64,000 nt of DNA from Lingula anatina (taxonomy: Eukaryota > Animalia > Brachiopoda): contig CM120641.1 of the NCBI GenBank assembly GCA_051362555.1, positions 47,808,401-47,872,400 of the forward strand, given 5' to 3'. The position numbers and the translations under genes were made by a program. The notes under the pieces were generated by a model. That model made no database searches and was not told the DNA's origin. It was given only the letters and a program-made list of their open reading frames with translations. Shown piece after piece: positions 25,823-58,028 of this stretch. Position 1 is the first letter of the stretch. Each line of letters opens with the position of its first letter.

Positions 25823-26481
25823 AACCTACACAGAAATTTACATGTTGCAAGATGGAGTTACTCATATAGTGTGTCCATGCATACACCAGCAGGCACCCTT
25901 GCTTTATGGTAAAAACTTGAAAATTTTGTCACTTAAAAATTAATTAATATTTTAAAATGTGTCAATCCGACACACACACCCATATAAGTTGATAAAACTT
26001 TTCAATGTAATGGAAAGTCCCATTTTCAAGTTTGGTGAAAATTTTCAAAGTGAAAAAAAAATTACACTGTCAGAGAATCGTCTTCTGGAAGAATTTTTTT
26101 AAAATGACTAAATGTTCAAGTTTTTACCATAGTCATCGCAGCAGATGTGGTCAAATAGTGATCTTCCCTTTGATCATATGATGTAGCAGTTGTAGAAGAC
26201 TGATAGGGCAATACTGTAGCAGCCAGCTGGAAATGACCTGCTCTGGCAAATAGTGTGGTAGTGAGACTGGTATACAGAATGGAAAATATGAATGCATGGA
26301 AAAATACATACATAAAGTGGTATTAGAATGTTTTTCAATATTTTCAGAGCTCTGCTCTACAGCTTTGGTTTGGAATCTTACAACCCACAGGTTAACACAT
26401 TCACTTTTAAAGACATTGCTCATTTGTGATATAAAGTGAAAAACAAAGGAAGCTAAAATATTTCATGTCTTCTCTTTTCAG

Positions 26482-28889
26482 AACCCAGCAACTTTGTTTG
26501 TGGAACATGCACTACAAAGTTCACTTCGGCCTGGTTCCTTCTCCAACATGTTCAGAATGCACACGGCATGAAGATCTACCTAGAGATTGAGCCGAGGTTG
26601 TCCTTTGAACCACCTCAGGCAGCAGCGGCAGCAGAAACTAATGGCAATAAAACTGAAACAGTAAAGATGGAGAGGCCGAAGACAGAAGAAATGGACGAGG
26701 AAGAGGAAGAAGAGGAAGGAGAGGATGATGAGGAGGAAAAATCGGAAAAGTCTAATCAACCACAAACGAGCAGACCATCGTCTCACACTCCTAGGTCAAT
26801 AGGAGAGATGAATGGAACTCCCCCTAATCTTTTCCTCCCATTTAGAAGCCCGTTTTCAGAAGTGCAGCAGCGATCTCCCTTTGGAAGCCTGCATCCTGGC
26901 AATTTTCACCGTCCACCTGGGCCGGAAATGCGCCTGGAAATGATGGCAGATCCGTTTAATAAAAGGGGTTTATATCCCTGGCCGCCGGGCTTTGATCCAC
27001 AGGGGCCTTTTCCACCAATGTTAGACCGCTCCCATCTCCTCCAGCTTAGAGAGGCTAGTCTGCGCGGGGCAACTTTGTCTGAGCTTGACTACTACTCCCA
27101 GCAGCTACGACGACTTGCAGGCACAGATTATAGTCCTACACCTTCTCCAACGACAACAAGACGTCACAGCGCCAGCTCCGCAGCTCCTCCCTACTCTCCA
27201 GCTAATCCACAGCCGTCAGCATTCTCTCCCAGCTCTAGTCAACCTTCGGAACAACCCAAGGATCCGCTGTCAGCACCAACAGCACAGCGACTCAAGTCCT
27301 GTGAATTTTGTGGAAAAAGCTTTAGATTCCAGAGTAATTTGATAGTCCACCGGCGATCGCACACGGGAGAGAAACCTTTCAAGTGCCCCCTTTGCCCCCA
27401 TGCATGCACGCAGGCAAGTAAGCTGAAACGCCACATGAAGACCCATAGGAACAAATCGCCCATGTCCTCTCAAGCATCCAATTTGTCTGCCGCAGGGTCA
27501 GATAACAGTGGCCTCTCCACCGCTAGCCCGGACTCCAACCGGCTGTCTCAGAGAGGCGAGGAGTCGGAGCTGGAGGATGAAGAGGAGGAGGAGTTTGAAG
27601 AGGAATTTGAGGAGGAAGAAGAGGAAGAGGAAATGGAGGGCATGGAGTTTGCAGAAGGTGACCAACCCACAGATCTTTCACATTTTCACAAAGAGGCAGC
27701 AGCACACTTCAGCACTGAGCAGACTTTACAAGACAAGCAGACGGCGGAGGACCAGCCTAAGGACTTGACTGTGGAAAGACCCAGCGCGTTCTCTCAGAAG
27801 CTTAACACAAGGTCCCCCAGCAGCACTGCATTCCCAGAAGAGAGCCAGAATCCCAATAAGGAGGATGGCAGTTCACGTGGCAGCTCTCCCAACTCGGATC
27901 CAGAGTCTCGCTCTGTATTGAAGGAAGTGATGAAGTCCTCTTTCTTAAAGAACATTCAGCAATATGATGAAGCCTTTAAACAAGCATTAGCAGAAAGTAC
28001 TCAACAAACAATAGCCATATCATCATCATCTGCCACATCAGAGAGGAAGGAACATGGATCTGAGAACATTGTTGAAAATGGGGTAAAAGAGCCACCGGGG
28101 TCTCCGTGCAGCTCTGCGAGGAGCCCAGTGGTGAAAAGTGAGCGACGCTCTGATACAGAGCCATTACCATCACCATCTTACGAGGCTGGTGTCCCCGAGT
28201 TCATAAAGAGAAAGAAACTGGATCAGCAGCAACAGCAGCAGCTGATGGAGCAGCATCATCGAAGGGTGGCCAACTTTGAAGGATTCTACCCCTGGTTCTC
28301 TCCACATGGTATCCACCCCCGAGATGTATTTATTGGCAATCTCCCGCATCCTCCTCCTCCTCATCTTTCCCTTCAACACACAGTGAGACACTCGCAAGCC
28401 AATGGAGTGCCTGGCATCACCGCAGACAACAGCGCTTTTCGCATCCACGAGAAAGGGGCGTCCTTAATGGGCGGCTTGCCCCCATCCTCTCATCGCCCGC
28501 AGTCACTGCCCTCGCTGCCTGTCAACACGCCCCAGAAGAAGGAGCATCGTCGCAATGACACCTGTGAGTATTGTGGGAAAATATTCAAGAATTGTAGTAA
28601 TTTGACAGTCCATCGCCGCAGTCACACGGGGGAGAAGCCGTACAAATGCGCACTGTGTAATTATGCATGTGCACAATCTAGCAAGCTCACACGACACATG
28701 AAAACGCATGGGCGACTCGGCAAGGACGTCTACCGCTGCAAGTTCTGTAACATGCCCTTTTCTGTGCCAAGTACGCTGGAGAAGCACATGCGCCGTTGTG
28801 CAGATAACCAACAGAATCGTATCCTGAGCGAAAACTCCCGTGACAGCAATGCGAGCTCTGTGGTTGCTACCAGTAATGCGCTCTGTTGA
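26482..28889 (+). CDS. BCL11A: BCL11/CTIP zinc-finger transcription factor, large terminal exon (ZF1, ZF2-3, acidic tract, ZF4-6)
   Basis: Acceptor tctcttttcag|. Begins [35 protein letters not shown] (human BCL11A [35 protein letters not shown]). Also KSCEFCGKSFRFQSNLIVHRRSHTGEKPFKC..., DTCEYCGKIFKNCSNLTVHRRSHTGEKPYKCALCNYACAQSSKLTRHMKTHG and YRCKFCNMPFSVPSTLEKHM. Stop TGA at 28887-28889. Probably the single invertebrate co-orthologue of BCL11A and BCL11B. Confidence 0.96.
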
Positions 28890-29639
28890 TGGTTGGGTTT
28901 TGATTAATTAAGTACACACAAGTTTACTGTTTTTTTCTTCATGAAGCATCACTGAGTGACATAACCCATGACTAAGATTTGTAGGAACTACACTTCAGTT
29001 CTAAGTATTGGACTCCATTGTTTTTCTTCAAAGTAACTCATTATTAAGGGTAAAATTTTACCAGGAGAATATAAAATGAGACCTGTATGATGGTTTCTTT
29101 GTAGATAGATAATGCTTATTGCTAGGTCTGCTGGGCAAGGGAGATCCACACAGTTCTTGGGAATACTCTGTGTTTGTAAGAAATACATCATAAGCTGGGA
29201 GAGCAGGTACAGACTATTTTTCAAGGGCTGATTGGTACTCCCTGGTCACAGATATGATAAATCATTGTTAAGAGTGTCGGTGATTTTGCTCGTGATCCTT
29301 GTACTATACGTTTTGTTGGGCGATGACAAATATGAAGGAGCACCTGCAGAATCACTGGCCTCTCTAGATATCAGTGCCATGATTATTTTGTTGCTTTTTG
29401 GATGGTTAAATTATATTTTTAGCTTTGTTGAACACCTGTGTCATTGTCTTGCACTTGCCAAAATCTATGTTAATGATGGTTGTATAGCCATGCAATGGCT
29501 GTTGTTTTTTTTTTAATGGTTGTTATTGTGCTTACGGCTTTTTTGTAAAGTACTTTTAATGTCTACTTTTGGGGGAAGGGTTTTATCCGACCACTTATTC
29601 AGATGATTAACCACATGTACACTTACACTTACAAACATG

Positions 29640-29672
<33 letters not shown>

Positions 29673-32600
29673 TTGTGTATGTTAAGTTTGATTTTTACAG
29701 TCATTGTAACCAAATGTGTATGCATGCAGCCACCCCTGAAGGATTAGAAGGTGAGCTTACTTTCATGAAAAATTATTCTAAGCTGGGGACATGAGAGTAG
29801 GTTCACCTAAAATCTATTTTTAACTTCTTGTAAGGTATGCATGAACTTTATTTACATAGCGTTAAGACTGTATTATACACATAGTGTAATGTCATAAAGT
29901 TGCCATGGTAACTACTCCAGTTGAGGTGGATTTATATTATATAGGTTATCATGGCAAGATGGAAGTTTTTAATGAATCTCAGTGATGCTAAATGAAGAAA
30001 TGGATTCTAATTGTATTCAAGAACTTTTTAAGTATGCTTGGAGGTTGGAATTATTGTCTCAAATTCTATTCTTAATTCTTTTCTTTATTTGTTAGTTTTA
30101 TCCTTTACTTTCTGAACTTGGATACCGAAGCCAAATTCTTTCAAGTCCATCCTATTATAATACTCAGAGTGAAGGACGGCTGGTCTCTACAATTGGCAGA
30201 CAACTTGGATGTGATTGGTTGTCGCCGTGGAAACTGGCATGAATATATAACCAACTTTTTCTAGAACATTTAATCCTTCAAACTTGCAGACCATATTGCC
30301 TTTTTGAAAATCATTAGGCATGGTGAAGTAGCGTCAGCAAACTGGGAGGCATGCACCATTGATTGGAGATAGGAGACGGTTTAGAAAGATCATCCATTTT
30401 TATTTTGGATTTTGCTGATGCAGAAGGAGAATTTTGTCTTTTGCATCGTCAATGGCTCGTGATTTTTGGCCTATTGCTCACCGTGTGCCTATCATTCTTG
30501 TATTTCGTAACTGTTTGTGCTTTGAATTAAAAAAGGACGGCAATTGTTGGACAATTCAGATGACAATGTTTTCTATGGACATTCTTGGGGATGTTTATAC
30601 CGTGTACTTTTACTGCACTTATTTTTTCCAACTGGATTGGTTCAACCTCCACATGTATTATTTTAAACATGTAAACTTTTTTGTGCTAGGTATAGTTTGA
30701 TGTTTCATAATTTATATGCTTATTATTATTATTTTTGGAGTAATGAAAACTGGCTTGGAGTCAAGGGCAGTGGCAGAATGTGATAGCTGTAGCCCCCCTG
30801 CCCCCAACATATACCAGATATAAAGAGAGTTTTTGATATGGGGGGTTGGGAAAGATGGTGATAATTGTTGAAGATGAGATAATGAACTTAACAACCGGGA
30901 AAAGAGGGTTGGATATGGCAATGTGCTAAGGGGCAGGGGAAGGCAGCATTAGTCGTCCCTTTAACATGGGTTGACTTAAAACTTTGGGAGATGCACAACA
31001 CCAGATTGTTGATAGAGGATGCAAAATGCAGAGATATATTTTTTCAGAAAAAAAATTTGAGAAAAAATGTGTTGTGGTGTCCAAGCTGCCGAGCAGCACC
31101 CTGATGTGGGCGGGTCTGTTGTAAACGACCCTGTTTTTCATGGTGCTTTCCTGACAGCAGCACAGTGTTCTCTAGTTGACCTCTGACTGACGGGGTGCTG
31201 TGGCCAGGGTGCAGACTAAACAACCCGGTGTGTATACTACTGTCCTATAGCAGGAGGGAAAACTTTTCTTTACATATACCAGGGGGGAGAGCATTTCTAT
31301 GTATTATACCTGCTATTATAGTACTATTACCGTGTATCGTGAAGCCATACATATATAGCTGAGATATTTTTGAAAATTTCTTGAATGCATGATTTTTTTT
31401 CCTCTTCCTTTTCTTTCTTGTTGATGAAAGGGTGGTATGTATCGTTCAGAGGCCTGATGGGATTGTTGTCATCTCGTCTCTCGTGGAGCTATCAAGCACC
31501 AGTGTGTTGGACTTTGTAAAAGTTATGTAGGTATATGTGGTTTTAGCTATAAGCCACCATTCTTTGCATTAGGGAAAAATAAGAGAAACAGTTGGTTCAA
31601 CTGCCATATAACGATTTGATCTCAACCTATAGAGTGTAGAGTTGATTATATGTTTCTTAGAGTAAAGTAGTAGTAGTGTTATTGTCTGTCTCTAGTGAAA
31701 CTTTTATCGTCGTCTGTGTTTTGTAAAACATAACAATGGTGCACAAATTTTTGAGATTCCCTGTGAATTAAAAAACTGGTTCATTTCGGGGCCTGCATGG
31801 CACGCCACATGAAGGTTGTCAGCTGCAAACAGTGGACAGAAATAGTGTATTGGGCCCACGAATGAGCATAACTGTGATGATATGGAGTCTGCAAGGGGTG
31901 GATATTTTATCTAGAGAATTCCTACAAGTGAATAACGTGGAATGTGGGGTTTTGTAAAAAAGTCAGAACAATACTTGTGGACTTTCTGATTTGTTTTCAC
32001 AATTAATCCAGTCATTAGATGGCTGTTGTTTTTTTCCTTCTTATTTTCTAGAGGGCAGATGGCATATTTAAATAATTGAGAAAGCTATTACTACCACAAA
32101 ATAGTAGCCAGCTAAACATTATTATATTTTTGTGTTGTTTTCACATTGCTTAAAGAGATGAAAAAGGTGAAGCACAGATCAAAACTGCATCCCGGCAGTC
32201 TAAATTGTGGGGCTTTTTTTGCATAAACAAAAAAGTATGAAATGTGCAATGACTATATTTATTGCAAGTACTGTATGAATTTTTTCTATGACAGAATGGT
32301 TTGCGAGCGCAGAAGGCTCCATCATACAGATAATCACAGGGACTCGCGAGTCCATCGCCTCGACATCTCATGCCTGATTTGAAATGGGAGCTCTTAAAGA
32401 CTGCACCCATTCATGTTGTTGATCCAAGGGATACTAGTAGGCTCAAGTTTTGGGGCGTGGAATAGAAACTCACCAAGGCAGAATTATTCACATATTTCTC
32501 ACTACAGATTTCATGGCACAACACATGGCGCAGAGAGATGGCGTCAGATTTCTGTGTATCGGTGATGGTGCTATTGTTTTTTTATTTTTTCTCTGGCAGA

Positions 32601-34557
32601 TGTACTGAGTTTCTGGGGGTGGTGGGGATGAGGACCTCCGTAGTCACGAAATGCACATAAAACTGTGTTCAAAAACATACAGGGGTGCTCAGCTCTTCAC
32701 ACGGAGTTATATTTTGTGCCATAAATTTTCAAGTGGACTGATCATTTGGTGATGTCGGATTTCCCCTCCCCCCCGCCCCCTCCCAAATCCAGCCACAGGC
32801 CTGTGCCATTAGTATCCCTACTTGCACAACACTAAACCTTGTCATTGTTCACATATCACAGTAGATATGCAGTGTGGCTGTAGAGTAAGTGCATATATAT
32901 AGAAATATATATACATATACATATATAGTAATCATCTTTGTGTATAGTTACATCGTAAAAAAAGTTTGCTTTTAGATGGTTATTTTTGATGATATTTACT
33001 GTCAGATTTAGTCACGTTATTGGTAATCATGTAGATTTTGTTCATTGGTCTTCGGATGTTTCTACATAATCAAATTGGATGTAGAGTTTCTCTTTTATAC
33101 CTATAGTAGATACTAAAAAAAAGTAGCCAGCATTTTAAGCTTATATTGCTTGAGGTATGCCCAAATCAGTGTTCACAGAGGCTTCAAGGAAGATGGGGGG
33201 AGAATAACACTGGCAGCCAGTAGCTGCTGCTCTGGGAGACTTATCTTGCAGTGCCTTAGTACACATACAATGAGTGTGTTATGTTACAGCATAATACCTT
33301 TCACATACGATCTAACACTGCCAACGAGCAAACGGATCACCATGAACTGGGGACGGAGATCAGAAAAAAAAAATACGTTCTAAAACTGTGATTTCAAACA
33401 GATAGAATTGTTGCCTAGACGTGACAAGTTCTCCCCAGCGTTGCGTCGTCCTAGTTCATGTGTGCTCTGGCTATTAGCCCTGTGAAGCCTAGGTGACCAT
33501 ATTAACTGACCTTTTCATAGCGCGTTCTGCAGGGTTGCCGCTTGGAGTTGACTGGGGGTTGTTATGCACATATACAATGTTTTATTATAAAAAAAATAAT
33601 TACAAAGAATGTTTTTTCTATCAATGGACTTAACTGTCATTTTCCTTACTGTGGTTGGTCAATTTGAAGTCCTGGCTGTACAAGAGATTGAAGATATCAG
33701 GCCATTTTGAGTTTTGGAAGTCCCACATACTATGCAATCATTTGAATTTGGCATTGAAACATCTATTTCTTAAAAAAAAGAAGAAAATGGATCATTTAAT
33801 GATCATAGATGTATTTCAGAACGCGTGAGAAAAAAAGCCAGGAAAACTCTTTGACTGACTATAAGTTTTGTCTCTTCCTTCTGTTTTCATCTGTGCAACT
33901 CTGTACCTGTCTCTTCTTGACAAAGCTACTTTTCAAGAAAGCGCCACCTATCCTTGTCTCATTGAAATCAAGTTACTTTTAAGTGTCATTATCTGTAGCA
34001 TACATCAAAAGATTTTATTATGACTAATTTAGATTTATCAGAGATGCTTTAGTTTTAACTTCTTGTTATTTCAGAAGAAGAGCCTCGAGGTGCCATATTG
34101 ATTGTACAGTGTTGTTTTTGTCATATATTGCATAGGTTATACTAATGAACACGATGAGTGTTGATAAAAAAAAGATTGAAAAAATAACAGTTTTAAACTA
34201 AGCAGAGTATGATACATCTTTATTTAAATGTATTTCCTTATTATTATATTATACTGCAGTGGACATGAAGGGGACTGACCAATACTGACCAGAGGCTAGC
34301 TCAAAGCACTCGGCCAGTAATTGTTGATACTGTTTTATGCAAATTTAACGAAAAAAAGACATTGCTTTTCATCAATTTGGAGAATACTACATCTGTAAGC
34401 ACTGCTTGATCAAAAGAAATTTGTCATTTATTTATTTTGGTATGGTTGATGCGTACCGGGTTATATGGGAGTACTTCTAGTTTGGCGCCTTTTGTGTTTT
34501 GTATTTAAAATGGTGGTTACTGTATTATTATGCCTTGTACTCAGTACATGTAAAGTC

Positions 34558-34563
34558 AATAAA
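34558..34563 (+). terminator. Candidate polyadenylation signal of BCL11 (long 3' UTR)
   Basis: AATAAA with upstream TGTA motifs and a downstream GT/T-rich stretch. Sequence composition changes beyond this point. Confidence 0.45.
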
Positions 34564-35309
34564 ACGTTGTACTAGTTTGAAATTTGCGTTTGAGTCTTGG
34601 AAGATTTAAAAAACATATTAAAACAGTTCAATTTATAACCAAGAAAGTATTTTGGGGTAAAATACCGAAGCTGTAAGGTGTTTTGTTATTTTGTTAAGTG
34701 ATCTGCAAGTGTATCCCATTGACTGAATTAATGCGAAACTACATTGTGGAAAAATTGTGTGTTATGAAGAATATGTACAAGAACACACTACTGGTATCAC
34801 TTCAATTCCACAGCTGAAGTTTACCGGGAGAGCCACCAGTGACGTAAAACACAATCATGAACACATCCAACAATGCCATCTCACCTAACACAATATGACC
34901 CCCCCCCCAATTGTCTATGCTAAAGTGTATATTCTATACTAGAAGCCAGCTGAGTAATGAACGTTGTTAACTTCATTCCGTCAATAAATAAATAGATAGA
35001 TAATAAATAAATAAATAAAAAGAAATAAAACTTAGCTGGACAATACATTAATGTGCACAGAATGAGAAATCTGTACAAATATCTATTAAATCTCTGTGAC
35101 GCTAGGTGAAGGTAGCTAGTAACTGCGTATTCTAATTGTTATTTTATTGAGAACTATAATGTTTAATATAAAGGTATACTAATTTTTCAGGATTTTAACA
35201 CAATTTGTTAAACAGCACAGACACGCACGTGCTCACAAGCGCGCGCGCACGCACAGACACGCACACACGAGTGTATGTGTTCAGCCCGGGAAGACGCAGA
35301 GAGAGAGAG

Positions 35310-35609: not shown

Positions 35610-37372
35610 TTATTTTCCAAAGTTCCCTCGGATGTAATCTTCTAACTGGCCACACACGGCATTTGGAGTTGGGTCACCCGATGCACAAGCTTTACCCACT
35701 GCCCATTGACAAGCCGTAAACCACAACACAGAATCTCCTGGGATGACAGCGGTGATGGTCCCTAAAGCGGCAGCAGCTGCAGTGCAGGCGGGTTTAGAAG
35801 CTATTTTACAGGAAAATTTGAATGGGGACATCACAGCTTTGCAGGAACTTCGAAGTGCTTTGACTACGAGGTCTGTTAGGAATCCCCGTCGCTGTCTGTC
35901 AAACTGGTCAAACAGAGCATCTCGTCTGGCTTCCACTTTAAACAAACAAAAACAGATATTAGCAATTAAAAGAGAAAAGTTATGCTTCGCTTATGCACGT
36001 CCACGATACTATAGGTAACAACAATGGGACATTGGCATCAAAACTTTAACATGGCACCGATATTGTGAGCACGCTTTCCGCTTAGAATACGCATCGTATT
36101 TTGCTTTATATTCATAAATTTAGTAATACGTAACTTTAAACACATTAAAAATTATCAGGGAAGAGTACACTTAACTTCACAAAGTTGGGAAAGCACGCTG
36201 CGATCCTTAATCGGCGGTTAACCAGCGATGACATGAAATCGTTTTTCGTGAGTTACACGCCAAAAAGTGGGAACCGGAGAGAGCAAATTTAAAAGTCTCA
36301 TTTAATATTAATGTGACCGGGTCATTACTACACCAATGGAAATTTCCTCTATTTGCGCTAAGTCCCTGGGCCGAATCTGAACGGGAATCAAAAATACACG
36401 CAAGCTGTGCTTTCGCTGTCGTGCGTGTCTGAGGAAACGAAACAGGATTGGGTCATAACACCTGTGATTACACGCTCAGATTACTGGATTTCCTTACACC
36501 TTGGTGTTTTATGAAAAGCAGTGTATTTCAGGTATTTTAATCCCGAAATTGAACAATTAATTTGTATAGCTCACGTGTATAGGAGATAATACTTTGTACC
36601 GAAGTTGAAAACAGAAACGATGGTAACGCACAACAACCCGTTTTTTTTTTTTTTCAGCCATCAAAATTTGCGACGAAGTGCAAATTTTGCTTTTTCCTAG
36701 TGTGTATGCTGTAAATCATCCATGAGATGACCAAAAACATGACAATACCATTCTGAGAGCTTTCTTTTCCATAATGTTCAGCTGCAAAACAGACTAACTA
36801 GTATGTCTGTGTCCCAGATTCAAGCGCCGTTTAAGTGTCACTTTCGGCTAAGAATTAAAAAGTTTAAAATACACAGCAATGTTTGGAAACACAAAATTGT
36901 CTTAAGTAATAAGATGAATCCAACCCCTTTATATGAAATCACCCCATTGTAATCCAACGCAAAGAAATATTTGGACAGACTTTTAAAGATGATAACCCAT
37001 TGTTGTCACCCAGTATTGTGGACGTGCAGTAATTGATTTACAAGTTACAAGCAGTTAAGAACCAAGTCTTTTCTTCCTTACCCTTCATGAGCATTAAAAT
37101 ACAAATCCATACAGGTTCATAAAAAAATGAAATAGTCTTCTATTTATGGGCATGAGTGCTGGTCAAGTCAAAATACAATCACTTCTTTTAGAAAGCGCAA
37201 CACATTGTATTATAATATAACTTATGTAAAATTATGACATTAAGTGCATATGTTAAAACTTACACTCTACAAATTCGATGGTATCCTCTTCCTCAATAGG
37301 CAGCTTTTTAGCCTGTGCCGAACCCAACCACAAACAGAGAGCCAACGCAACCAAGACGATGTAGGTACGCAT
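35610..37372 (-). CDS. Secreted six-cysteine prepropeptide, paralogue 1 (144 aa; putative antimicrobial or cytolytic peptide precursor)
   Basis: Exon 1 37372-37264 encodes MRTYIVLVALALCLWLGSAQAKKLPIEEEDTIEFVE (donor gtaagt, phase 1). Exon 2 35935-35610 (acceptor tttaaag) encodes LEARRDALFDQFDRQRR|GFLTDLVVKALRSSC...CGQLEDYIRGNFGK*. Gene structure and frame are conserved in paralogue 2. Function is inferred. Confidence 0.85.
36540..37030. mobile_element. Dispersed repeat, family C, within the intron of peptide paralogue 1
   Basis: Collinear similarity to ~51735-52410 (aagttgaaaacagaaac..., ccatcaaaatttgcgacgaag..., aagcgccgttt...gtgtca...ttcggctaa). Absent from the 355-bp intron of paralogue 2. 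Confidence 0.6.
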
Positions 37373-37419
37373 CTTGTCTATGGTCAAGGAGTGTATGCTT
37401 CTGTATTTTCATCTCAGAA

Positions 37420-37443
37420 TTTATAGCTTGCGATAGCCAATCA
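37420..37443 (-). promoter_or_regulatory. TATA box (TATAAA, minus strand, 37425-37420) and CCAAT element of peptide paralogue 1
   Basis: About 50 bp upstream of the ATG; conserved in paralogue 2 (40094-40089). Confidence 0.6.
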
Positions 37444-37665
37444 ACGACCGCTAAACGGTTCGTGTAATTCGCCATCTTGTTATACGAAAATCATGCACTT
37501 ATAATCTAATCAGTGTATGGGGGCGTCTTGATAACCCGAAGGTATATTGGTCCGAAAAATGGTAACATTTTCATCAGTTTTTAAACCAAGGGTTCACTGG
37601 TCCAAAGGTTCTATAGTGACAAAAGAACTTTCGGACTATAGAACCATTGGACTATTGCTACGCCC

Positions 37666-37668
<3 letters not shown>

Positions 37669-37751
<83 letters not shown>

Positions 37752-37759
37752 ACACACAC
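37669..37759. repeat. (CT)n(CA)n compound microsatellite
   Basis: Directly visible. Confidence 0.9.
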
Positions 37760-38936
37760 TAATAAACGTCGCAATCTTTTTTTCACTCTCTTTTTTAGGC
37801 CTATCATTTTTTTGTGAGTGTGTGTTTCTTTTTATTTTTCAATGGAGGTTTAACTTTCCATCCCAGATATGTGCCTGACCAGGTGTTCCCCTGCTGCCCG
37901 TACTTACAGTTGCACGTGGGTGGGTAAGCAACTGTTTGGGCTTTGGCTCAAGCGCGCATGATGTTACCCAGTAAGTATTTCTAATTTTGGTATGTTTTAT
38001 CTATTTATATTTATCTATTGCAAGGACATTTTGTATGACCGGTAAGGACATGACCTTACCGTGACAAAGTCACAGCTGGTAAAATCTCACCATCTTCTCT
38101 CATCATTGGACATTTACTTATCCCTCGTTGTCTATTTGCTGCTGAATAAAAAAAAAATAAAACTTAGCTGGACAGCACATTAATGTGCGCAGAATTAGAA
38201 GAAATATGCTAGAAAAATCTAGTATTTATACTCAGCCATGGACAAAATTACGAAGAAGGAACACATCAACCTATACCAGCTCACCTGACACCATATGAAT
38301 CCCATCTAATACGTTTTAAATAAGTATCCTCTACGCCAGAAACCAGCTAATTGATAAACGTTATTTCTGCAGTTCTGTGAAAAAATCCGCGCTTGACAGC
38401 ACAGAAATGGAATCGGACAGAAATATTTTTCAATATCTTATGAAGAAATATCTATGTGGTCCTGGTAGAGGGTAGTTAATAACTGCGTTTTCCAATTTCG
38501 CTTTATTGAGCACTATAATGTTTTATAGATGGGGACTTAAATTTTGTACACAATCCCTTCTACACACACGAGTGCGCGGGTGCACATACACACACGCGCG
38601 CGGAAATACTAGTTCATATGTTCAGCCCAAGGAAGCGCAATGGACGCAGAGGTACTGCCTAGACTGAAAGTAATCACATGTAGGGCTACGCACTGACTAC
38701 TGGCCGATCATTGACTACACTCCACCAGATTGACCCCTGGCACAGCTTGATTTTTCAGATTGACTTTTCACTCAGACATGACGCGGGTAAATTATCTGCG
38801 CTATTCGCTATTCTCTGTTCGTTTCTGTACGGCGAGCATTTGTAAAATTGGCTCAGCACTCAGCTGGCTTCTTGTATCAAGTGACCAGCGATGAGAGGGA
38901 AAGAACTCTGCCTCAGCAAAAAAAAAGGTGCAGTTT

Positions 38937-38940
<4 letters not shown>

Positions 38941-38985
<45 letters not shown>
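38941..38985. repeat. (AG)n microsatellite
   Basis: Directly visible; an equivalent (AG/TA)n tract lies downstream of paralogue 1 at ~35298-35348. Confidence 0.9.
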
Positions 38986-38989
<4 letters not shown>

Positions 38990-39239
38990 TCTATTAATTT
39001 AATTTAAGAACAGATGCAAAATTTAGTTTCTACATAAACTGATAACATTTGATCACAAATTTTTGACAAATATAAACGAAATGCAAGCTGAGTTCACGAA
39101 AAAAGACACGGTTTAATTTTGGCATATTCTTACTGATGTTTAATCATCAAAGAGACATACAGGATAGCAATATTTCTTTAACTGTGCTGTTGTTTACGTT
39201 GTACACTATATAGCACATACGTTAACAATAATAGCTCTT

Positions 39240-39756
39240 TTATTTTCCAAAGTGCTCTCGAAAGAAATTTTCAAAGTGTTCGCATATGAGATGTGCGGTC
39301 GGATCACCCTCCGCACAAGCTTTGCCAACGGCCCATTGACACGCCCCAAACCACAACGCGGAATCTCCTGGAATGGCTGTGGTGAGAGTTCCCAAACTGG
39401 CAGCGATTACAGTGCAGGCGGGGACAGAAGATGCTTGACAGGAAAATCTAAATGGTGACACAATATATCTGCAGGACCCGCGAAGAACTCCGACGATGAT
39501 GTCTCTTATTCGTCCACGTCGCTCTCTGTTAAACTTTTCAAACAGAGCATCTCGTTTGGCTTCCACTTTAAACAAAAAAAAATTTAAAGTAAGTAGCAAA
39601 CGAAAGAAACAAATGACACATGTATATACATATTGCACGCAGTTTAATTCGACATTTGCATCATTTCGCTTTTACAGACATTAAATCGGAGATACAAAAG
39701 TTCATGAATGAATTCGCAAAAATAGATAAATAAATAAACATAAACAAACAAACAAA

Positions 39757-39792
<36 letters not shown>

Positions 39793-40041
39793 CATGATAA
39801 TAACATTTTAACTTATTGGTTTGGATGCGGGTCCAAGAGAGTACAAGAGGGTACAAGAGAGTCCAATGAAATAACTCACCATTTTGGTTGCAATTGTATA
39901 GAGTATAAACTAAAACTTACACTTCACAAAGTCGACGAGATCGTCTTCTCCAACTGCATGAAATTGCATATTCGCCTGTGCTGAGCCCAAGGTGGAGCAC
40001 AAACAGAGAGCCAACGCAACCAAGACGATGTAGGTACGCAT
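39240..40041 (-). CDS. Secreted six-cysteine prepropeptide, paralogue 2 (148 aa)
   Basis: Exon 1 40041-39921 encodes MRTYIVLVALALCLCSTLGSAQANMQFHAVGEDDLVDFVK (donor gtaagt). Exon 2 39565-39240 encodes LEAKRDALFEKFNRERR|GRIRDIIVGVLRGSC...CEHFENFFREHFGK*. Exon 2 is 326 bp, the same as in paralogue 1. Confidence 0.85.
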
Positions 40042-40088
40042 CTTGTCTATGGTCAAGGTGGGTATGCAGCTGTATTTCCATCTCAGAA

Positions 40089-40112
40089 TTTATAGCTTGC
40101 GATAGCCAATCA
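40089..40112 (-). promoter_or_regulatory. TATA box and CCAAT element of peptide paralogue 2
   Basis: Identical to the motif block at 37420-37443. Confidence 0.6.
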
Positions 40113-41767
40113 ACGACCGCTAAACGGTTCGTGTAATTTGTCATCTTCATACGAAAATCATTCACTTAGCCGTGACCAGATTATTGCTTCATTACTAACA
40201 ATCTATGTGGTAATATTCCTTGATATTGGGATATGTTTTTAGTTAATTTCACTGTGGCAGAAACTGATTGATGTAAAAAGATTAAAGTTATTTGGCGAAA
40301 ATGACTCAAAAGCGGTTCTACAATTGTTATTAAACCACTTACAGTGATAATCGATAATAAATTCAAAATTGCTTCTGAAACCATGATCATAGAACTATTT
40401 AAACATTACAGCAAATGAGGGCAATCCATGTCAGAACAGCTGATCATAAGCATGGAGAAAATTACGAATAATTATGTTATTATGTTCAAGTCATAAGCAA
40501 TGAAGTGAATATCCACTTACCTGATTACCAGCATTTTATTAAATATACGTTATTATACGTTTTTTTATTCATTATGATGTCCATGGTAAATAGATAATTT
40601 TCCCAAAATTGCTGAGCAAAAGGGTTCGGACCAAAAAAAAGTGTTACCGCTCTACCTCTCTCTGCGAGGAGAAATTGAAAACAGGGGCATTTTGAAGCTA
40701 TTGAGACCTCGGTGCGTCTTTTCTGTCCATACAAGTAAGTGTGTTGTGAAAAAGAGGCAAAATGTGGAGAAGTTTTCTGAATCATTTCGAAGTTTTATTC
40801 AATTTTTAAAACGTGTATAGAACAAAAATCCAGGACTGTCTCTATTTGACATCTACTTTTAATTTTTACCATGCTCATACATTATGCAAGGAGCCAAAAT
40901 TGTAACGTATGTTCTGGGTGCATATAATTTTAATCTTTATACCGCGTTCCGATATGTTTTGTAGTGATTCAGTCATGGCAAATTATACATGGCGTAAGGA
41001 TATTTTATAGATATTTAAACTGTAACCCAAGGGGCTTTGCGTCATGGCAAATGCTACGTAACGTATGTTCCCCAGAAAAATTGTCAAAAAGCTTTATCTT
41101 GCCCAAGTACTTGTGCAATAGGAAACAGGGTTTTCTGTTGCTGACTAACAAATATATTGTGATTCCATGATAGTTTGATACAATACTTGGACCACGAATG
41201 GCAAATAGTTTAATTAATGCTTATTTGAGTGTCAGTAGGGTGTATAGTCCCCCTTTTAATATTCAGTGACAAGCAAACTAAAGCCGCTCAAAAAATAACT
41301 GCTCAATACAGAAGATTATCATATTTTTTACAATGTTATACTTGTAAGAGATAAAGGACAAAACCAGGGATGATTGAATTTTCAAAGTGAGTAAAGCGTT
41401 TGCACAACTGGAAGTTTTGCATTTGTGACAGTAACGTACAGTATGTTCCTTTTTGGGGATAGATGATGATGAATTATTATTATTTTATTCATGTACGACC
41501 CTAAAATAATCAAACATAGCCTGCAATCTGCGCACTTAATAGTTTAAGAGAATGCCTGTGACCTCATTGTACCTCTATATTGTGTTTAGGTGATTGACCT
41601 CATGGCAATAATAGCACTAAAGGCAGAAACGAGTTTAGAATTGGACATCAATGAAGTAACAGAGGGGAATTGCCATTAACTTAACATGGCTTTTTTTCCC
41701 AATTTATACACGCACATTATACATGTACAGAGGGGCGACATAAGTATTGCACCATGTATGTGAATAG

Positions 41768-43898: not shown

Positions 43899-44557
43899 GG
43901 TTGGACCGACTTGAGTAAATTACACGGAACTTCCCATATGTCAACGTATCCATTGCTGTAGTCGGCCTGGACTAACTAACGAAACGGATTAATTGCGATA
44001 GGTGTCCCAACGTTCAAAGAGTCAATACTGGAAGTGAGGATGGACCGACTTGCATAATTTATAAGGATCAGTTTAATACGATATATGCCATGCTTCCCAT
44101 AGTTCTAATTGTCAGTTGCGGTATTTGTGCTGGATTCATTTGTGTAATTGACACTATTGACAGGTGCCATCCTTCCAGTAGTTCAAATTGTCTGTTGTGG
44201 TAGTTAGGCTGGACTAAATTGTGTAATTAACAGAGACTAATAAACTAACAGACTAATAATTGGTGGCTTTTTAGTGACAGCTTTTTTCGCTTGGGGTGCG
44301 ACTTACAGGGGCAGAAGGCCAGCTGGTCAAAACTACATGTAGTTTAGGTCTGGGAGGTGAAGGAAAAGGCATAGATCTATAAAATGGTGCAAGAACTGAA
44401 AACTATGTTAAAGAGAATTTGGAGACAATGTCAGTGACAGAAGGAACAATTGATTTCTACAATTCCCTTTACGGGATCAAGAATTACCAAAACCACACAA
44501 TAAACTACAAGGGCGTACCTAGGTATACGCACGACTGCTTTTTTTTTTTTTTTTTTT

Positions 44558-44708
44558 TCCTAGGGAAGGAAGTCCGGGGTCCCATATTGGTACAGGTTAG
44601 GGTTAGTCAAAGTTTTGGTGTTAGTTTATGGGACGAATATCACCTGTACAAAGTACATGTAATAGGGAACGGACTACGGTTCCAGCGGAGTACCATTCTT
44701 GTCACAAC
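44558..44708. mobile_element. MITE, family D (partial copy)
   Basis: Shares cctagg...aagtccgggg and gcggagtaccattcttgtcaca with 47391-47555 and 60606-60764. Confidence 0.5.
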
Positions 44709-45781
44709 GCTTAGTACTAAGCGTCCTTTAGAAAACAAGGGCCGGATGATTATCGTTCTATTATTTCCATTAATATCAATCACTGGGTAATGTTCCATGA
44801 TATTGGGATGATGTAATTTAGGTAATTTGGTGCAAATGACTCAACAACTGCTGTACTGCTGTATTTTAATAACCATGTACAATGATAATCAAGAGGAAAA
44901 CCAAATGGCCCATGAAATAACCAAAGTTCTGAACTACATTCTCAAAAAGGAACTTTTCTCCCAGTCAACTTCGATAAAGGCACAGACTGGATTGGTATTG
45001 GGGAGGGGTCTGCCTGGGACTGCCTGGGGCTCAGTCTTATCAAAATAATCTTGTAACAGTTAACCCAGTCCTGCCAATGGGCTACAGTACAAGGCACTAT
45101 CTGGTAGTACAATGCTATCCCGAGTATGTCTGTCTATGTATGCCTGGAAACCGACTTTCTTTGAAAGTTTAGCCTCTTTAAAACAATTTTCAGTCTATGG
45201 CCCTTGCTTTGCTGAATGCTATGGTTCAACCAAGTTTTCGTGACGTTACCATGATTCCATCACGCTAGAGAAGGGGACGCTGGGTCAGTAGTTAGTAATA
45301 GTAGACTGTAAAAGCTGGAGACCAACCAGTATCTAACACCTGTGGACCGATACCTGGTAATTACAGCTGAAAATTGCTTCTGAAATCAACAAAATCAACC
45401 ATATTGATCATTACAGCACATAGGGGGAATACATATAGGAACAGCTGATCATAAACAATGAAGTAGATATCCACTTCCTTGAATACCGGCATATTGCGTT
45501 TTTATTTTTAATGATGTCTGTGTTAAAACATAAAGCTCCCAATGTTGCTGAACAAACAGAGTTTGAATCATAAAATGTTTTACCGCTCTTCTTGCAAAGA
45601 GAAGTTGAAAAGAAAAATATTCAATTAGTTAAAACTTTGAAGTTCCAAGCTCGCGGCGTGCCTTTTCTGCCTGTAATAATGTTCATTAAAAGTGCCCCCC
45701 CCCTTTCTGCAAAAGATGTTTTCCTATAGTAGAGGAAGTTTTTTCAAATGCTAGGACCCCCCCCCCCCCCCCCCCCCCCCC

Positions 45782-45948
45782 CAGGGGCGGCGGCTTGAGG
45801 TTGTCATCTGGGTCTTCGGGAAGACGGCCAGATGTTCAAGTTTACATTGACGGGTATCTATTTTTTTCGGTCGGGAGACTGTCAAAATTGAGATGGATCA
45901 ACTAAGATAATTTGGAAGACTGTCAGAAAACAACTTGGGATCCGCCCC
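45782..45948 (-). mobile_element. MITE-like repeat, family A (inverted)
   Basis: Reverse complement of 832-996; CAGGGGCGG...GGATCCGCCCC. Confidence 0.6.
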
Positions 45949-46282
45949 CCCCTCCCCCCCCCGTTCCAGGTCCCTTTATCGTAGAGACCCCATGCTAGCA
46001 CTTACGCAGAAACAAGTTTATATATTGGACAACAATGAGGAAACATGGGGGAAATGCCATTAACTAAACATGACTTTAAATTTTTCAATTTATACACATA
46101 CATTATACATGTACATCTGCCGACAAGTTTCACTGAAAGTTCTATAGGTCGCACAATGCAACGAGTCGATCGTATATTTCATATATACCGATTAAGGTAA
46201 TTTGCAGCGAAAATTGGACGGTTGCGTTAACGTCACATTTATTTAATTTTCTGACGGTAAATGGTAAATTGTGAGACAAGCA

Positions 46283-46371
46283 TATAAAAGACCAATAGTT
46301 CTGTTAACTGTTGCGGCTGAGGCGACGAGTTTATTTCATCGTGAAATCTGCGAAACAAACCAAAAGAACAA
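46283..46371 (+). promoter_or_regulatory. TATA box and probable non-coding first exon of the TIL gene
   Basis: TATAAAAG at 46283 and a donor A|gtaagc at 46372. The matching acceptor cctttttag lies immediately before the ATG at 47265. Confidence 0.5.
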
Positions 46372-47264
46372 GTAAGCAATCCACGTGAGTAGAAACAACG
46401 GACTCGAGCTGGTTGTGGACCAGCATTTAGATTTACTGTGGTGCTTCAATAACAGTTTGCCTCTGTCGTGTTTCACTATAGATAAATGTATAAACTAAAA
46501 TTGTTCTTGAATTTTATTTAATTTTAGTCTATTCCCCACATTTCGTCCAAAATCTCTTATCATTCTTTAAAACTAGCAAAGTCTCTGAACTGCCTTTTTG
46601 AAATAGGACTCTGTTTATGTCAAAGTGTGTGTGTGTGGGGGGGGGGGGGGAGGGGGGGAGAGAGACATGACCTGTCTCACATCTGGGACAGTGTTATAGT
46701 GAAAAGTTGTCACTAAACTGTTCACTAGACACTGCCACGTAACTTCAGTGAGACTGGTGAAGTCCCAAGTGTTGGGAAGAAAGCTCTCAGGTACGCTTTT
46801 AGCTTATTATTTGGTCGAGACTAGCGAAAAGGTACATATTTAAGTAGTTATTTCCATGAGATACGTAGTGAGAGGACATATGATTCATGGTACAGTAATG
46901 TCTCATTGCCTCAGTTTTACACCGTAAATGGAAAAATGCTGTAAGGTGGCGCATGTGTTTGACAAGTAGCTGAGAAAGACTGGTGTTCGGCTACCAGGTG
47001 GACGTACGAAAGGTGGAAGAATGGTATAACATGCTTGGGAAAGAGGATATGCCCGAGTCCTTCTCTGCTGAACACAGTGTGTGTTGCTGAGGGTGGTACA
47101 TGTATTATTTCCAACTGCTTTGGTAACCAGACAATAACTTATTAGTACCTTGGACATAAAAACGTTATTATGTCCAAGTTTGTACTATATACAGAATCTT
47201 TATCTATGGAATGATACCGTGACGTGGTATTTTGTATTCATTGTATTATTTGCACCTTTTTAGA

Positions 47265-47946
47265 ATGCGGGCCCTGTTGGTGATTTTACTAATTGCGGGT
47301 ATTGCAGCTTTCTCGGGATCGGTTCGTTACCCTCCAGCTGACAATGGAAGTATGCAAACAAGTTTTAATATTTAATATTCAAATATGCTGGTGTGACTGG
47401 AATGGTAGTCCTAGGAATGGAAGTCCGTGCTCCCATATGATTGGTACTGGTAAGGGTTAGTTGAATTATTGGGGTTAATGTATGGAACGAATAACACCTG
47501 TGCAAAGTACTGGGGAACGGACTAAGGCTCCTAGCGGACTTCATTCCTGTTACACCTGGTTCCATCCACTATTTTTGAATAAGAGACTTAAGCAGGCTGT
47601 CGATTGTAACACGCACGCACTCATTCTCGTTCAGACTTGTATCTCGTATTAGGCTAAGACCAATTTTCGGACTTAGATTCTTTTTAAACAGCGTCCATTA
47701 GTATTGCTGTGACTGTATGTGTTTGTTCATCTTACTCCGTTTTCCTTAGAGTGCCCCGGTGATCTGGTGATCCTGGAAGACCAATCAGAATGTGCCTGGA
47801 AGTGCCCGACCACGTGTACGTCACGTGACCCTCCGCCGTGCGTCAGGCTGTGCTGGCGAGGCTGCGTGTGTCCCAAGGATAAACCGATCCTACTGTCACC
47901 TGATCCCTGGACATGTGGAACCAGGGCGGATTGCAATGCTGCCTAG
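47265..47946 (+). CDS. Secreted TIL-domain (trypsin-inhibitor-like, 10-Cys) protease inhibitor, 93 aa
   Basis: Exon 47265-47349 encodes signal peptide MRALLVILLIAGIAAFSGSVRYPPADNG (donor gtatgc). Exon 47750-47946 encodes KCPGDLVILEDQSECAWKCPTTCTSRDPPPCVRLCWRGCVCPKDKPILLSPDPWTCGTRADCNAA*. It has the canonical TIL C-x3-C-x3-C...CxxxC-xxGCxC pattern. AATAAA at ~48008. Confidence 0.85.
47391..47555. mobile_element. MITE, family D, in the TIL gene intron
   Basis: TIRs GTGTGACTGGAATGGTAGTCC / GGACTTCATTCCTGTTACAC, flanked by CTG on both sides. Confidence 0.65.
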
Positions 47947-48754
47947 ACAACCGAGCCATGGTGCATAAATATGCGATAGAAGATTTTGAAAATAGAAAGG
48001 AGAAAGAAATAAAATCTAATTTGATTGAAAATAATGAAATGTCTTCAGAATTGTTTTTTGAAACTACTATATGTATATTCCCTAAAAAAACTTTCTGCTT
48101 TTTTTTTTACATTTTTATACATCCAACGGCTATAGATATAAACATTAAGTTTGTGGCGTAATATATGCTAACGAAAATGCGCATAACTTTGTTTTTTCCT
48201 GTTATTATTCCGAGAAAAATATAAAAGTGTCCTTTTAATATTAACAATTCAATTTTCCGTGTCAACAAAACGAGCAAACTGGACGAGGTCAGACGTCGTC
48301 ACAATATGGACACCGTCTATATTCGTTAGTTTATTAAGGAAGAGGCAATGAGTACAATGCAACGTTTGAACTACGCAGGCGTCATCGAGAAGGCTGTGCT
48401 GGCGGCAGGCTTCAAAAGCCTTTGTAAATGAATGTTGTACTACGCATAACAATGGAGGAGCTTTGCAACTGTCATTATTCAGTGAAGGGAGATACAGCAG
48501 TTGTCAACACTGAGAACGTACGTCTAAGTCACAAACCCCCGGTCTAGACTATGCATATAAAGTATTGTAGACAAGCATCTTAACAAATACAGCTTACAAC
48601 ATGTACACAAACAAGGAAAAGCACTTTGAGAAAACAGTAATTAGAGTCCAGTACTGTTGTAGAAAGAATCGGCTATAATTGAAGAAAACATTGTTGAAAA
48701 AACATTTCCAAATCCATCGACTTTTTTTTGAGGCTAAATCAATGTATATCGATC

Positions 48755-51700
48755 TTAGAAACCTCGCTCGCACACGAAGCCGTGAGCCACTCCACAAGCA
48801 CCTCTCGTCATTCTGAGGTTGTGTGCACCATCCAAGAAGACGCACCGACCGGTGTCAGGGTCCCCAGTGACGTCCACTTTCACAGAGTGTCCATCCCCCG
48901 CCCACATCAAAGTACCGCGTTCCATCAGGTCGTTGCCGCTGATCCACCATTTATCGATCCCTGAAAAAGAAAACCAGGCAATATTGAACTATCGTACCGA
49001 CTAGTATTTTATTTTTATGTGTATTTGTATATTTTTAGTAGAAAGATTTTCCATTTACTGTCTTACTAGACTTCATGTGTAAATATTGCATTATTTATAG
49101 AAATGTTTTTCCTTACCCAGTCAGTGAATAGCTGCAAAGCTAATGTTTCCTTTCAATTTATACCCGACATGAAATAAAATGTATTGTATTGTATTGTATT
49201 GTATTGAATTGAATTGTATTGTATTGTATTGTATTGCATTGCATTGCATTGCATTGCATTGCATTGCATTGTATTGTATTGTATCTTCAAACGTGCAGAA
49301 ACACAGCTGTGGTTTTGAATCCTCTGTTCTTAACTACTAGTAACAGTGTATTAGAAATTGGGGAATTGACCATGAGGCAGTGTACTACATACAGACTTAG
49401 TCAAAAAGGTTGCCCCACCTCTGATACTGTGCATTTTTGCTTAAAAATGATCACCTCACATTTGTAAACCAATTTGTACAGGATTTTTTTTTATTCCAGA
49501 TACCACATCTGACACGAATCATGGTACAGAATGCAAAATATCGGGGAAGATTTCCATATTTTTACCAGTTATTAAATTTAGAGCATACAACCCTTAAATC
49601 TCGGGAATCTGGTGTTCCACAATGATTTCCAGAGGTGAAAAAATGTCCATAAAATAAAAAAGACAACACCAAATGTACAAACAATGAGCATAAGCATGTG
49701 CTCGTTAAAAGCCACGTGTCTAATAGCGTGGATGTCTACTGCGTACTTCAATTATCTCCTGCGGTGCGCCATGCTTTCAGCAAGGGAAAGAATTCTGTGT
49801 TGTGGAAAATTGTCTCATTCTTCCAAAATAGCTTGGTGGGGATGGCTCAAATTTTGGGGGGATTGATTCTCCTCTGTATTGCACACATCAAGGTTCTCAG
49901 TAGGGTTAATGTAAGGGCTCAAAGATCGTTGCTTAATCCTCAGAACATTGCATATCTGCAAATCACTCACAGAAGAGAATTTTGAGCAAGTGCGTTGTCA
50001 CGATGAAGCCTGTATTATCCCTGAAGTCACCTCTTGCCAATGAGATGAACACAAACACATGGGATTTATGGTGGGAAAACCTTTTTGACCAAGTCTGTGA
50101 AGTCTTTGGTAATACTTTTAATAGGGAGTTTTAGTTATATACGCCCCCTCTAATATAAATGTCTTCAAAAGAAGCTAAACGAACTAAAGAAAAACAAAAG
50201 TTTATCAGTATTGATAATAGAATTTAGTTAAAAATATGTCCTGAACATAACAAGGATAATTCCCATGAGATGTTCATGAGATGATTACCTTGACCTCCTT
50301 TCAAAGTCAAGGTCACAATCAATTTAAGTATTTTTGAAAGAACATTCCTGCATCAGTATCAAGGTAAAATTTCAATACCTCGTGTGATTTAAGAGACAGA
50401 CACTGAAAGAAGTGCCCGCGTTAATCATCGTAAAATCTGCCTTAACCAGTGATTTTACTGTGTCTTTCCACATGTGGTCCACTTCATATGCACAGGAAGA
50501 AAGGTTTACCTGAGGAAGCGACACCACTGTCATGGAAGGGCTCGCCTTTGATGTAGTTGAATTCTTCCGCGGAATTCAGGGACGCCAGACGGGCCCCGTA
50601 AAGGCGGGCACACAGTCGGTCGGCGTCAGCCCAGCTCACTGTCTCAGCAACGAAAATGTAGCAGGATTTGAAGTCATCATTACGCACGAAACAACTGGGG
50701 CACGGGTTCACTGGAGAATAGCAGAATGGCTGATCTCTTCAATCTTGTCAAAACTTTTTACATACGGACGTACGCGCGCACGCACACGCATACACACACA
50801 CGTTTGCACACGCGTGCGCACATAAACTTGTTTGTGTACATGTTGTAGGCCTGACTGAAATCGCAATCTCGTTTACAAATAACCAAGATGGTCTGGATTA
50901 CTATAGAAATGTTCACCCTAGTATAAAAAGCCCATAATCTTTGCTGATATAATTATTTCATACCAATTATGCACAAGAAATTTATGAACATAAATCCGTT
51001 TACTATTTGGAATCATTGTGGTGCAATTTGATAAATCTAAAATGGTCACCAACTGTCAGAGAAATAGCTTTTAAATCTAAGATTGGCTTCAAAACTTAGT
51101 TTACCATTGCATCGGTGATCCAGTTCCCACAGCAGGTCCTTGGCGTTTTGTAAGTCGGCTATAGCCTCATCGATTGCCGCGTGCTGTTCTGCGAGAATCT
51201 GCATGCTCCTCTCATGAGGTGGACACTTTAAGTATTCGACTGCAACAGAAACGAAAGTTCCAAATTCGCAATAAAGTCACAAAAGAAGGGAATAATGTAA
51301 AATAATGGTGACATAAACTTGACCTCTCTTCCACTTTGAGTCTCTCAATCATTACCAGTAAAGCTAGGTGGGACGCGACGGAGAGTTTCACATGATAGAG
51401 AGTCCGGTTCCCGTTAATTTGCTCAGGTAAACCTCGTCCTACATTTTGACCCACTTACGTTTGGCTAACCCTAACCTGTATAATTAAAAGGAGTTTGGAC
51501 TGTCTGTGGCACGAACCCTCAGTTTCGACACACTTGCTTACCATTTTTACAAGCTGTCGCGATCAGTTCCTGTGTCTTGGAGATCAGATCATTGAAGTTC
51601 TTTGTGGTAAAAACGTAGCTGTCGAATGGTTCCGAGGCGATCAACTCAAGATTGTCTCTGAAACGACAATTAAATTCAACTCATTAAGGAATGATGGAAA

Positions 51701-57250: not shown

Positions 57251-58028
57251 TCTTCGATTTTTAACTAACCACCAGGCGTTTCCAAAGCTTGGTGTTGATA
57301 GTTAGGTACTAATACTTATATCGGGAATATTTAAGGTGTATCAAATCCCTTTATTGGCGTAATTTTTTATTAGAATACACTATTTCTTGGAATGCCTGTC
57401 ACTAACTCACTATATTACTAAAAACGAGGATCGATCATCGTTGATATATTGATATCAAAAGCTTTATCATCTATTTATTAAATTCCATGGACTTTTAATT
57501 TTTTTCAACCTGAGCGAACATGCTTTCTGTTATATGTCTATTTCTACTAGTTATGTCTCTCGTCAGACAAATCTCTCTGTCTCTCCAATGGAAATGTGTT
57601 TAACTTCACCTCTAGCACAATACTGGGTCGTAACAATGTGGCAGAGACTCGAGAGACAGGATACACGCTAAAAGCAACTCTGTATTAAGGGATCTTATTT
57701 GACTGTCTTAATATCATCGGTCCGTCTCCTTGACACTCAGGGCTTAAAGATTTGTTTGTATTCCGCCGTTGCGATTACCAAGGTTACCAAAATTGGTATG
57801 ATTGAAAATAACTCCTATGTCGGTTCGCAATGGTACATGCCAGATCTGTCTATTGACGTAAGAGGGATATCAGCGCAGATATCAGACCAAGAAGTGTCAA
57901 TATATTCTTTTGATTTGAAACAAGAGACCCTTTGTCAAGAAGATGCCTTATCTAAAGAGACGAGCCCTTCACATCCCATCAGACGAGGGCCAAGTAGTTT
58001 GTTCACATATGTCGTCTCACTGAAAAAT

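Follow-up and report, generated by a model that had tools for sequence, protein, structure and literature searches.

What do two small, adjacent genes in a 64-kb stretch of the Lingula anatina genome encode, and what might their products do? The genes, which we call A and B, lie in tandem on the minus strand of this stretch (the window, meaning the whole of the DNA analyzed); both are intact and consist of two exons, and no third copy is present in the 64 kb (Table 1). An earlier note, made by reading the letters of the DNA, had described two tandem two-exon genes with spliced products of 144 and 148 residues, and their exon limits, GT-AG boundaries and phase 1 introns all check out. Each intron pairs a GTAAG donor with a pyrimidine-rich AG acceptor, and in both genes a TATAAA element lies about 50 nt upstream of the ATG, accompanied by an inverted CCAAT box. 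The sequence supports A and B as real-looking prepro-peptide genes, whose products arrange six cysteines in an undescribed framework within a precursor of a familiar type.

The spliced precursors (144 residues for A, 148 for B) open with a signal-like stretch, judged from hydropathy only (11-residue Kyte-Doolittle means of 3.0 in A and 3.3 in B), and continue through a pro-region to RQRR in A or RERR in B, downstream of which exactly 91 residues remain, ending in Phe-Gly-Lys-stop. A signal peptide and an acidic pro-region had been proposed; the former agrees with the hydropathy, whereas the pro-region, with a charge of about -3 in A and about -1 in B (signal Arg excluded), is only mildly acidic. 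The pro-region also holds a second dibasic site that the first account lacked, EARR in A and EAKR in B. Cleavage at these second sites (35898-35927 and 39528-39557, minus strand) would free a conserved eight-residue spacer peptide, DALFDQFD or DALFEKFN. Furin-type convertases cut after RxRR, a carboxypeptidase removes the Lys and PAM converts the Gly to an amide. By these established rules, both precursors would be cut at RxRR, trimmed of Lys and amidated from Gly, leaving an 89-residue peptide, for which linear unmodified masses of 9188 and 9606 Da are calculated.

Within the 91 residues the cysteines of A and B follow one layout, 14-C-10-C-7-C-24-C-7-C-10-C-13, with gaps of 10-7-24-7-10; the convertase sites, mirror-symmetric six-cysteine arrangement and Phe-Gly-Lys ends first reported for these genes are exact in both. 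When six cysteines were placed at random in 91 residues, 0.10% of 200,000 trials gave an exact mirror, and across the six frames of the window only A and B show it. Because the two are paralogous (their exon-2 products are 60% identical), the mirror counts as a single event.

A and B match no described family in the libraries searched, as had been anticipated. Pfam returned no family at E<=10 for any of the four exon products, and none at E<=0.1 for P0003 and P0004, two remote fragments introduced below; NCBIfam returned none for the four alignment members. Top scores in the ESM Atlas (0.77 and 0.81) were no better than those of shuffled sequences. A PDB sequence search gave two rows only (E 1.6-1.8, BLV capsid), which were discarded as chance. 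In a word-index protein search none of four candidates scored for gene A, and with a four-row profile two of 220 scored, both already members of the query. The precursors were not returned from a collection that contains the Lingula BCL11 protein, and they therefore appear to be unannotated there. Within open-licence literature we found no description of Lingula effector peptides of this kind; the main Lingula immune-gene survey lies outside that scope and could mention them. Two literature frameworks brought up by a spacing search, xibalbin 8 and asilidin 8, are other frameworks than that of A and B.

A HMMER search of 1.84 billion representatives gave four hits (P0001 to P0004), two of them credible. 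These two, P0003 and P0004, are unnamed C-terminal fragments of 57 and 56 residues (E about 5e-4) that align to about 40% of the query at 40-43% identity. They scored 97-113 in alignment, whereas none of the 2000 shuffles of each, Cys-fixed shuffles included, exceeded 61. Common to both are G-D-S-x-x-W-F, C4-x7-C5, Asp-Pro, C6 and Gly90, and each terminates in a Gly, likewise a donor for amidation. The N-terminal halves of both are missing. In them C5 and C6 stand 13 and 14 residues apart, so the palindromic spacing, exact in A and B, is not established as a family-wide trait. We infer that they are exon fragments of other eukaryotes. The other two hits were discarded, since the score of P0001 is a sum over 9 stretches of pentraxin repeats and that of P0002 a sum over 6 of HYR repeats. 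Contig scans for relatives passed none of 86 stretches in Joint Genome Institute metagenomes, with the same outcome on repetition, and none of 11 in viral contigs; a plasmid scan gave one match at E 1.0, which is among the rejected leads. In prokaryote genome contigs the single stretch considered passed tblastn against the peptide alignment, and may represent either contamination or a genuine relative in bacteria.

AlphaFold models were built from four-row alignments. Peptide A plus part of its pro-region was modeled with a predicted local distance difference test score (pLDDT) of 76 as four helices with breaks, and mature B with a pLDDT of 83 and a predicted template modeling score of 0.73, with helices at residues 2-19, 31-44, 52-69 and 74-88; neither model has a beta strand. 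Helix 1 is amphipathic (hydrophobic moment 0.43 in A, 0.50 in B), which bears out the amphipathic N-terminus and helical character suggested from the sequence. The single long helical hairpin suggested alongside them is not supported by the models, both of which show four helices with breaks, and full-length alignment of the mature model to compact helical bundles favors a bundle of that kind. The models are compatible with a saposin-like topology, and nested disulfides (1-6, 2-5, 3-4) would fit the spacing and the predicted helix limits. So paired, C15-C78 would join helix 1 to helix 4, C26-C67 would join a loop to helix 3 and C34-C59 would close the helix 2-helix 3 hairpin.

How this framework relates to known ones can be judged by comparison with the frameworks in PMC7203481, PMC10437998, PMC11896702, PMC11035819, PMC5577568 and PMC5793116. 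Saposin-like proteins (SAPLIPs; NK-lysin, amoebapore, caenopore and Na-SLP-1) have about 80-90 residues, six cysteines and four or five helices, which resembles the length, the cysteine count and the predicted helices of A and B, and the nested pairing that the literature gives for them is the one proposed for A and B. Their cysteine pattern is nevertheless different (gaps of 2-27-9-24-5 in NK-lysin), and, unlike SAPLIPs, A and B do not match the Pfam saposin profile. The bridges proposed for A and B would also be located close to the hinge, so that an apolar hairpin of 24 residues remains, whereas saposins have about nine residues between C3 and C4.

Big defensins have been reported in brachiopods. 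They are made from a precursor with a signal, a prodomain with a dibasic furin site, six cysteines and C-terminal amidation (PMC7203481). A and B share this precursor layout, including a prodomain that ends in a dibasic site. The cysteines of big defensins, however, are confined to a C-terminal beta-defensin domain, where they pair 1-5/2-4/3-6 after a Cys-free hydrophobic domain, whereas those of A and B run from position 15 to 78 of 91 in an all-helical model. Cysteine-stabilized alpha-beta (CS-alpha-beta) peptides carry CxxxC and CxC motifs. The smallest cysteine gap in A and B is 7 and no strand is predicted, which separates them from cis-defensins, macins and mytilins; the earlier statement that the spacing fits neither these last two nor saposins or big defensins stands. 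In CS-alpha-beta peptides a helix is bound to a beta-strand through parallel disulfides (PMC7203481).

Similar in gene design are the saposin-like conotoxins typified by Mu8.1, which, like A and B, come from a single-domain prepro gene with a conserved signal and a variable mature region, the latter helical and 89 residues long. Mu8.1 places a saposin-like fold on a non-saposin cysteine pattern; its class has ten conserved cysteines against six in A and B, and no sequence match to A or B appears among PDB chains. Lingula is not known to be venomous. Turgencins, from the ascidian Synoicum turgens, are amidated, helical, six-cysteine antimicrobial peptides with nested pairing, of about 35 residues and strongly cationic; their cysteine gaps are much shorter than those of A and B. 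U-GRTX-Esi19 of the octocoral Eunicella singularis, compared by description only, has a mature region of 100 residues with six cysteines and a predicted four-helix bundle, in which three inter-helix disulfides and loops of variable length form a knotted bundle restricted to Malacalcyonacea (PMC11896702). By analogy, the action of A and B would most resemble that of a SAPLIP lysin, delivered by a precursor of the big-defensin type.

The divergence between the paralogues is uneven. A and B are identical at 42 of 42 nucleotides over the first 14 codons, at 93% in the promoter region, at 88% in the pro part of exon 2 and at 72% in the mature region; a signal kept while the mature region varies follows the pattern of defense peptides, and also that stated for conotoxins in their paper. 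The ratio of nonsynonymous to synonymous substitution (dN/dS) is 0.55 over the mature region, 0.25 in the C3-C5 core and 0.51 downstream of C5, and it reaches 0.93 in the first 14 residues and 1.39 in C1-C3, values that rest on few codons and carry no significance test. Taken as they are, they would fit a core that is conserved beside a basic N-terminus that varies, and 5' gene conversion could be an alternative cause of the identical signal region. In the promoter regions (37373-37460 and 40042-40130, minus strand) about 60 nt are perfectly identical, including the CCAAT and TATA elements and a short inverted repeat (ACCG, 5 nt, CGGT), which suggests strong constraint or gene conversion.

The reading we favor, and to which we give about an even chance, is that A and B encode secreted, convertase-activated, amidated, membrane-active defense peptides, inducible or tissue-restricted, on an undescribed cysteine framework. 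In its favor we count the big-defensin-like precursor layout, the uneven divergence of the paralogues, the charge and amphipathic helix 1 of the N-terminal half, the 19-residue hydropathy near 1.5, the confident model of mature B, the place of NK-lysin and Na-SLP-1 among the first 50 of 48,161 chains in structure comparison, and the residues kept in the two remote fragments. On this view the N-terminal half, which is basic and amphipathic (charge +5 in A and +4 in B, against -1 and -3 for the C-terminal half), would first bind anionic lipid; the conserved apolar hairpin of helices 2 and 3 would next enter and permeabilize the microbial membrane, in the manner of saposin-fold lysins. The genes would be switched on by induction, or active only in a tissue outside the RNA runs examined. 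Lineage-restricted families of cysteine-rich peptides are common in invertebrates.

The results that weigh against the defense reading come from structure comparison, peptide chemistry, the Mu8.1 precedent and RNA. The proposed check by AlphaFold and Foldseek yielded a helical model, in the form of a four-helix bundle, and no Foldseek match at E<=0.001. VIA-align of the mature model against 48,161 chains gave none at Z>=8: the best was a PBCV-1 capsid chain (Z 6.7), with Na-SLP-1 ranked 14th (Z 4.9, root-mean-square deviation [rmsd] 3.4, 78 of 90 aligned) and NK-lysin 29th (Z 4.5, rmsd 2.7, 71 of 78 aligned), placing the modeled likeness to NK-lysin and saposins within noise and under unrelated bundles. 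These comparisons also bear on the idea that A and B are highly diverged, non-lytic saposin-like proteins that bind or transfer lipid. We regard this as very unlikely, for the cysteine gaps differ from those of NK-lysin, Pfam is empty at E<=10 and the Z scores lie within noise, against which stand the six cysteines, a four-helix model of about 90 residues and whole-chain alignment to two SAPLIPs. As to chemistry, the mature side-chain charge without Gly-Lys is +3 in A, which is weakly cationic, and 0 in B, which has three His; a peptide neutral overall is unusual for a classical cationic antimicrobial peptide. The best 19-residue mean hydropathy (1.46 in A, 1.49 in B), spanning helix 2 and the tip, is on the low side for a segment that crosses a membrane.

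Membrane activity is, moreover, a predicted activity, and Mu8.1, which has a saposin-like fold yet inhibits Cav2.3, suggests by analogy that such a fold with differing disulfides may serve a receptor or channel ligand. A and B could in this way be signaling ligands (hormone, pheromone, or receptor or channel ligand), rigid disulfide-bonded helical proteins, freed by convertase cleavage and amidation, that bind a receptor and not a membrane. Precursors of neuropeptides and hormones just as typically carry dibasic sites and Gly-Lys, low and cell-restricted expression would account for missing reads, and the W/F/G/D/P core is kept into the remote fragments. We nonetheless think it unlikely: the spacing of the hormone family CHH/ITP (Cx15Cx2Cx12Cx3Cx8C) does not fit and Pfam is blank, divergence is quicker in the mature part than in the signal, and conserved bilaterian hormones would usually be expected to have many relatives, not two credible fragments among four HMMER hits.

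RNA was drawn from eight of nine same-species runs (all except X5), with 6-30% of each run read. No spliced joint at either intron was listed in any of the eight, and the exon-1 bins had zero depth throughout, so that the spliced transcripts foreseen for these genes did not appear, including in two runs where BCL11, a gene in the same window, is well covered. Exon-2 bins of gene B ranged from 0 to 0.05x; exon 2 of gene A was at zero in four runs and at 0.1-2.3x in the other four, where the bin is shared with an intronic repeat. As a control, BCL11 was included in four runs and reached about 11-53x in X6 and X9, and it was barely covered in X2 and X3. For runs without a stated tissue, this result is one of absence from those samples, not of silence. 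Dispersed repeats at 36000-37010 (in the intron of A) and 37530-37640 (upstream of A) draw divergent RNA reads from elsewhere in the genome, and a related copy lies near 51,740-52,150.

Blank RNA runs would also be accounted for by gonad-restricted expression, if A and B were gamete or reproductive-secretion proteins, membrane-binding or fusogenic and quickly diverging between paralogues. Their amphipathic helices and fast-changing N-terminus fit such a role, and furin-processed gamete proteins such as sea-urchin bindin exist; C-terminal amidation is untypical of such proteins, and we consider this role quite unlikely. Least probable to us, with only a slender chance, is that A and B are duplicates that are silent or in decay, or that they encode structural secretions of shell, chaetae or mucus without a role in defense. 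That no reads show expression, and that a search of the collection holding Lingula BCL11 did not bring up the spliced proteins, speaks for this; both frames, however, remain intact although exon 2 has diverged by 26% in nucleotides, the six cysteines, splice sites and TATA and CCAAT elements are kept, and the core dN/dS is 0.25.

Should the favored defense reading hold and the peptides be active, they would be brachiopod effectors on an undescribed cysteine framework, directly testable as an 89-residue peptide with three bridges. A bolder extension, which we consider unlikely, is that they represent a structurally new kind of animal lysin, in which a saposin-like bundle of two leaves has its disulfides at the hinge and so frees a long apolar hairpin to insert into membranes. 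Such lysins would occur in more than one lineage, the two remote fragments included, and would be missed by standard annotation because their expression is restricted to challenge or to one tissue. A and B also bear on a question raised for Mu8.1, namely whether saposin-like bundles with different disulfide patterns arose by descent or by convergence.

Table 1. Positions of genes A and B, their parts and the neighboring BCL11 gene in the 64-kb window
Feature	Position	Strand	Length	Description
Gene A, exon 1 coding part	37264..37372	-	36 codons + 1 nt	Signal-like peptide, start of pro-region
Gene A, intron	35936..37263	-	1328 nt	GT-AG, phase 1; dispersed-repeat sequence inside; splicing predicted
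Gene A, exon 2 coding part	35610..35935	-		End of pro-region, mature region, stop
Gene A, exon 2 cleavage motifs	35922-35927; 35886-35897	-		Dibasic RR; RQRR
Predicted mature peptide A	35613..35885	-	91 residues	Cys 15, 26, 34, 59, 67, 78; terminal Gly-Lys
Gene A, promoter-like elements	37420..37442	-		TATAAA 37425-37420; inverted CCAAT box 37442-37437; consensus match kept in both paralogues
Gene B, exon 1 coding part	39921..40041	-	40 codons + 1 nt	Signal-like peptide, start of pro-region
Gene B, intron	39566..39920	-	355 nt	GT-AG, phase 1; splicing predicted
Gene B, exon 2 coding part	39240..39565	-		Last part of pro-region (dibasic KR; RERR at 39516-39527), then mature region and stop
Predicted mature peptide B	39243..39515	-	91 residues	Cys positions as in A
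Gene B, promoter-like elements	40089..40111	-		TATAAA 40094-40089; inverted CCAAT box 40111-40106
BCL11 orthologue	16835-17311 and 26457-34600	+		

The main exon of the neighboring BCL11 orthologue is 100% identical over 802 residues to an NCBI Lingula anatina protein, which assigns the window to this brachiopod. RNA depth runs about 5.7 kb past its stop codon to about 34,600 (X6, X9), which indicates a very long 3' untranslated region ending about 1 kb from gene A, tail to tail. On the other side, at about 44,550-54,000 and 60,200-63,200 on the minus strand, lie duplicated multi-exon genes with VWA exons (Pfam) and matching blocks in self-comparison; other exons of these genes resemble C-type lectin domains by eye. 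Between them, 57672-58540 (plus strand) holds exons of a probable small secreted C-type lectin, with a signal-like and a coiled-coil-like stretch followed by Lectin_C. Finally, positions 8270-10590 form a tandem array of units of about 146 nt with about 93% identity, to which sequence near 24,050-24,280 is related.

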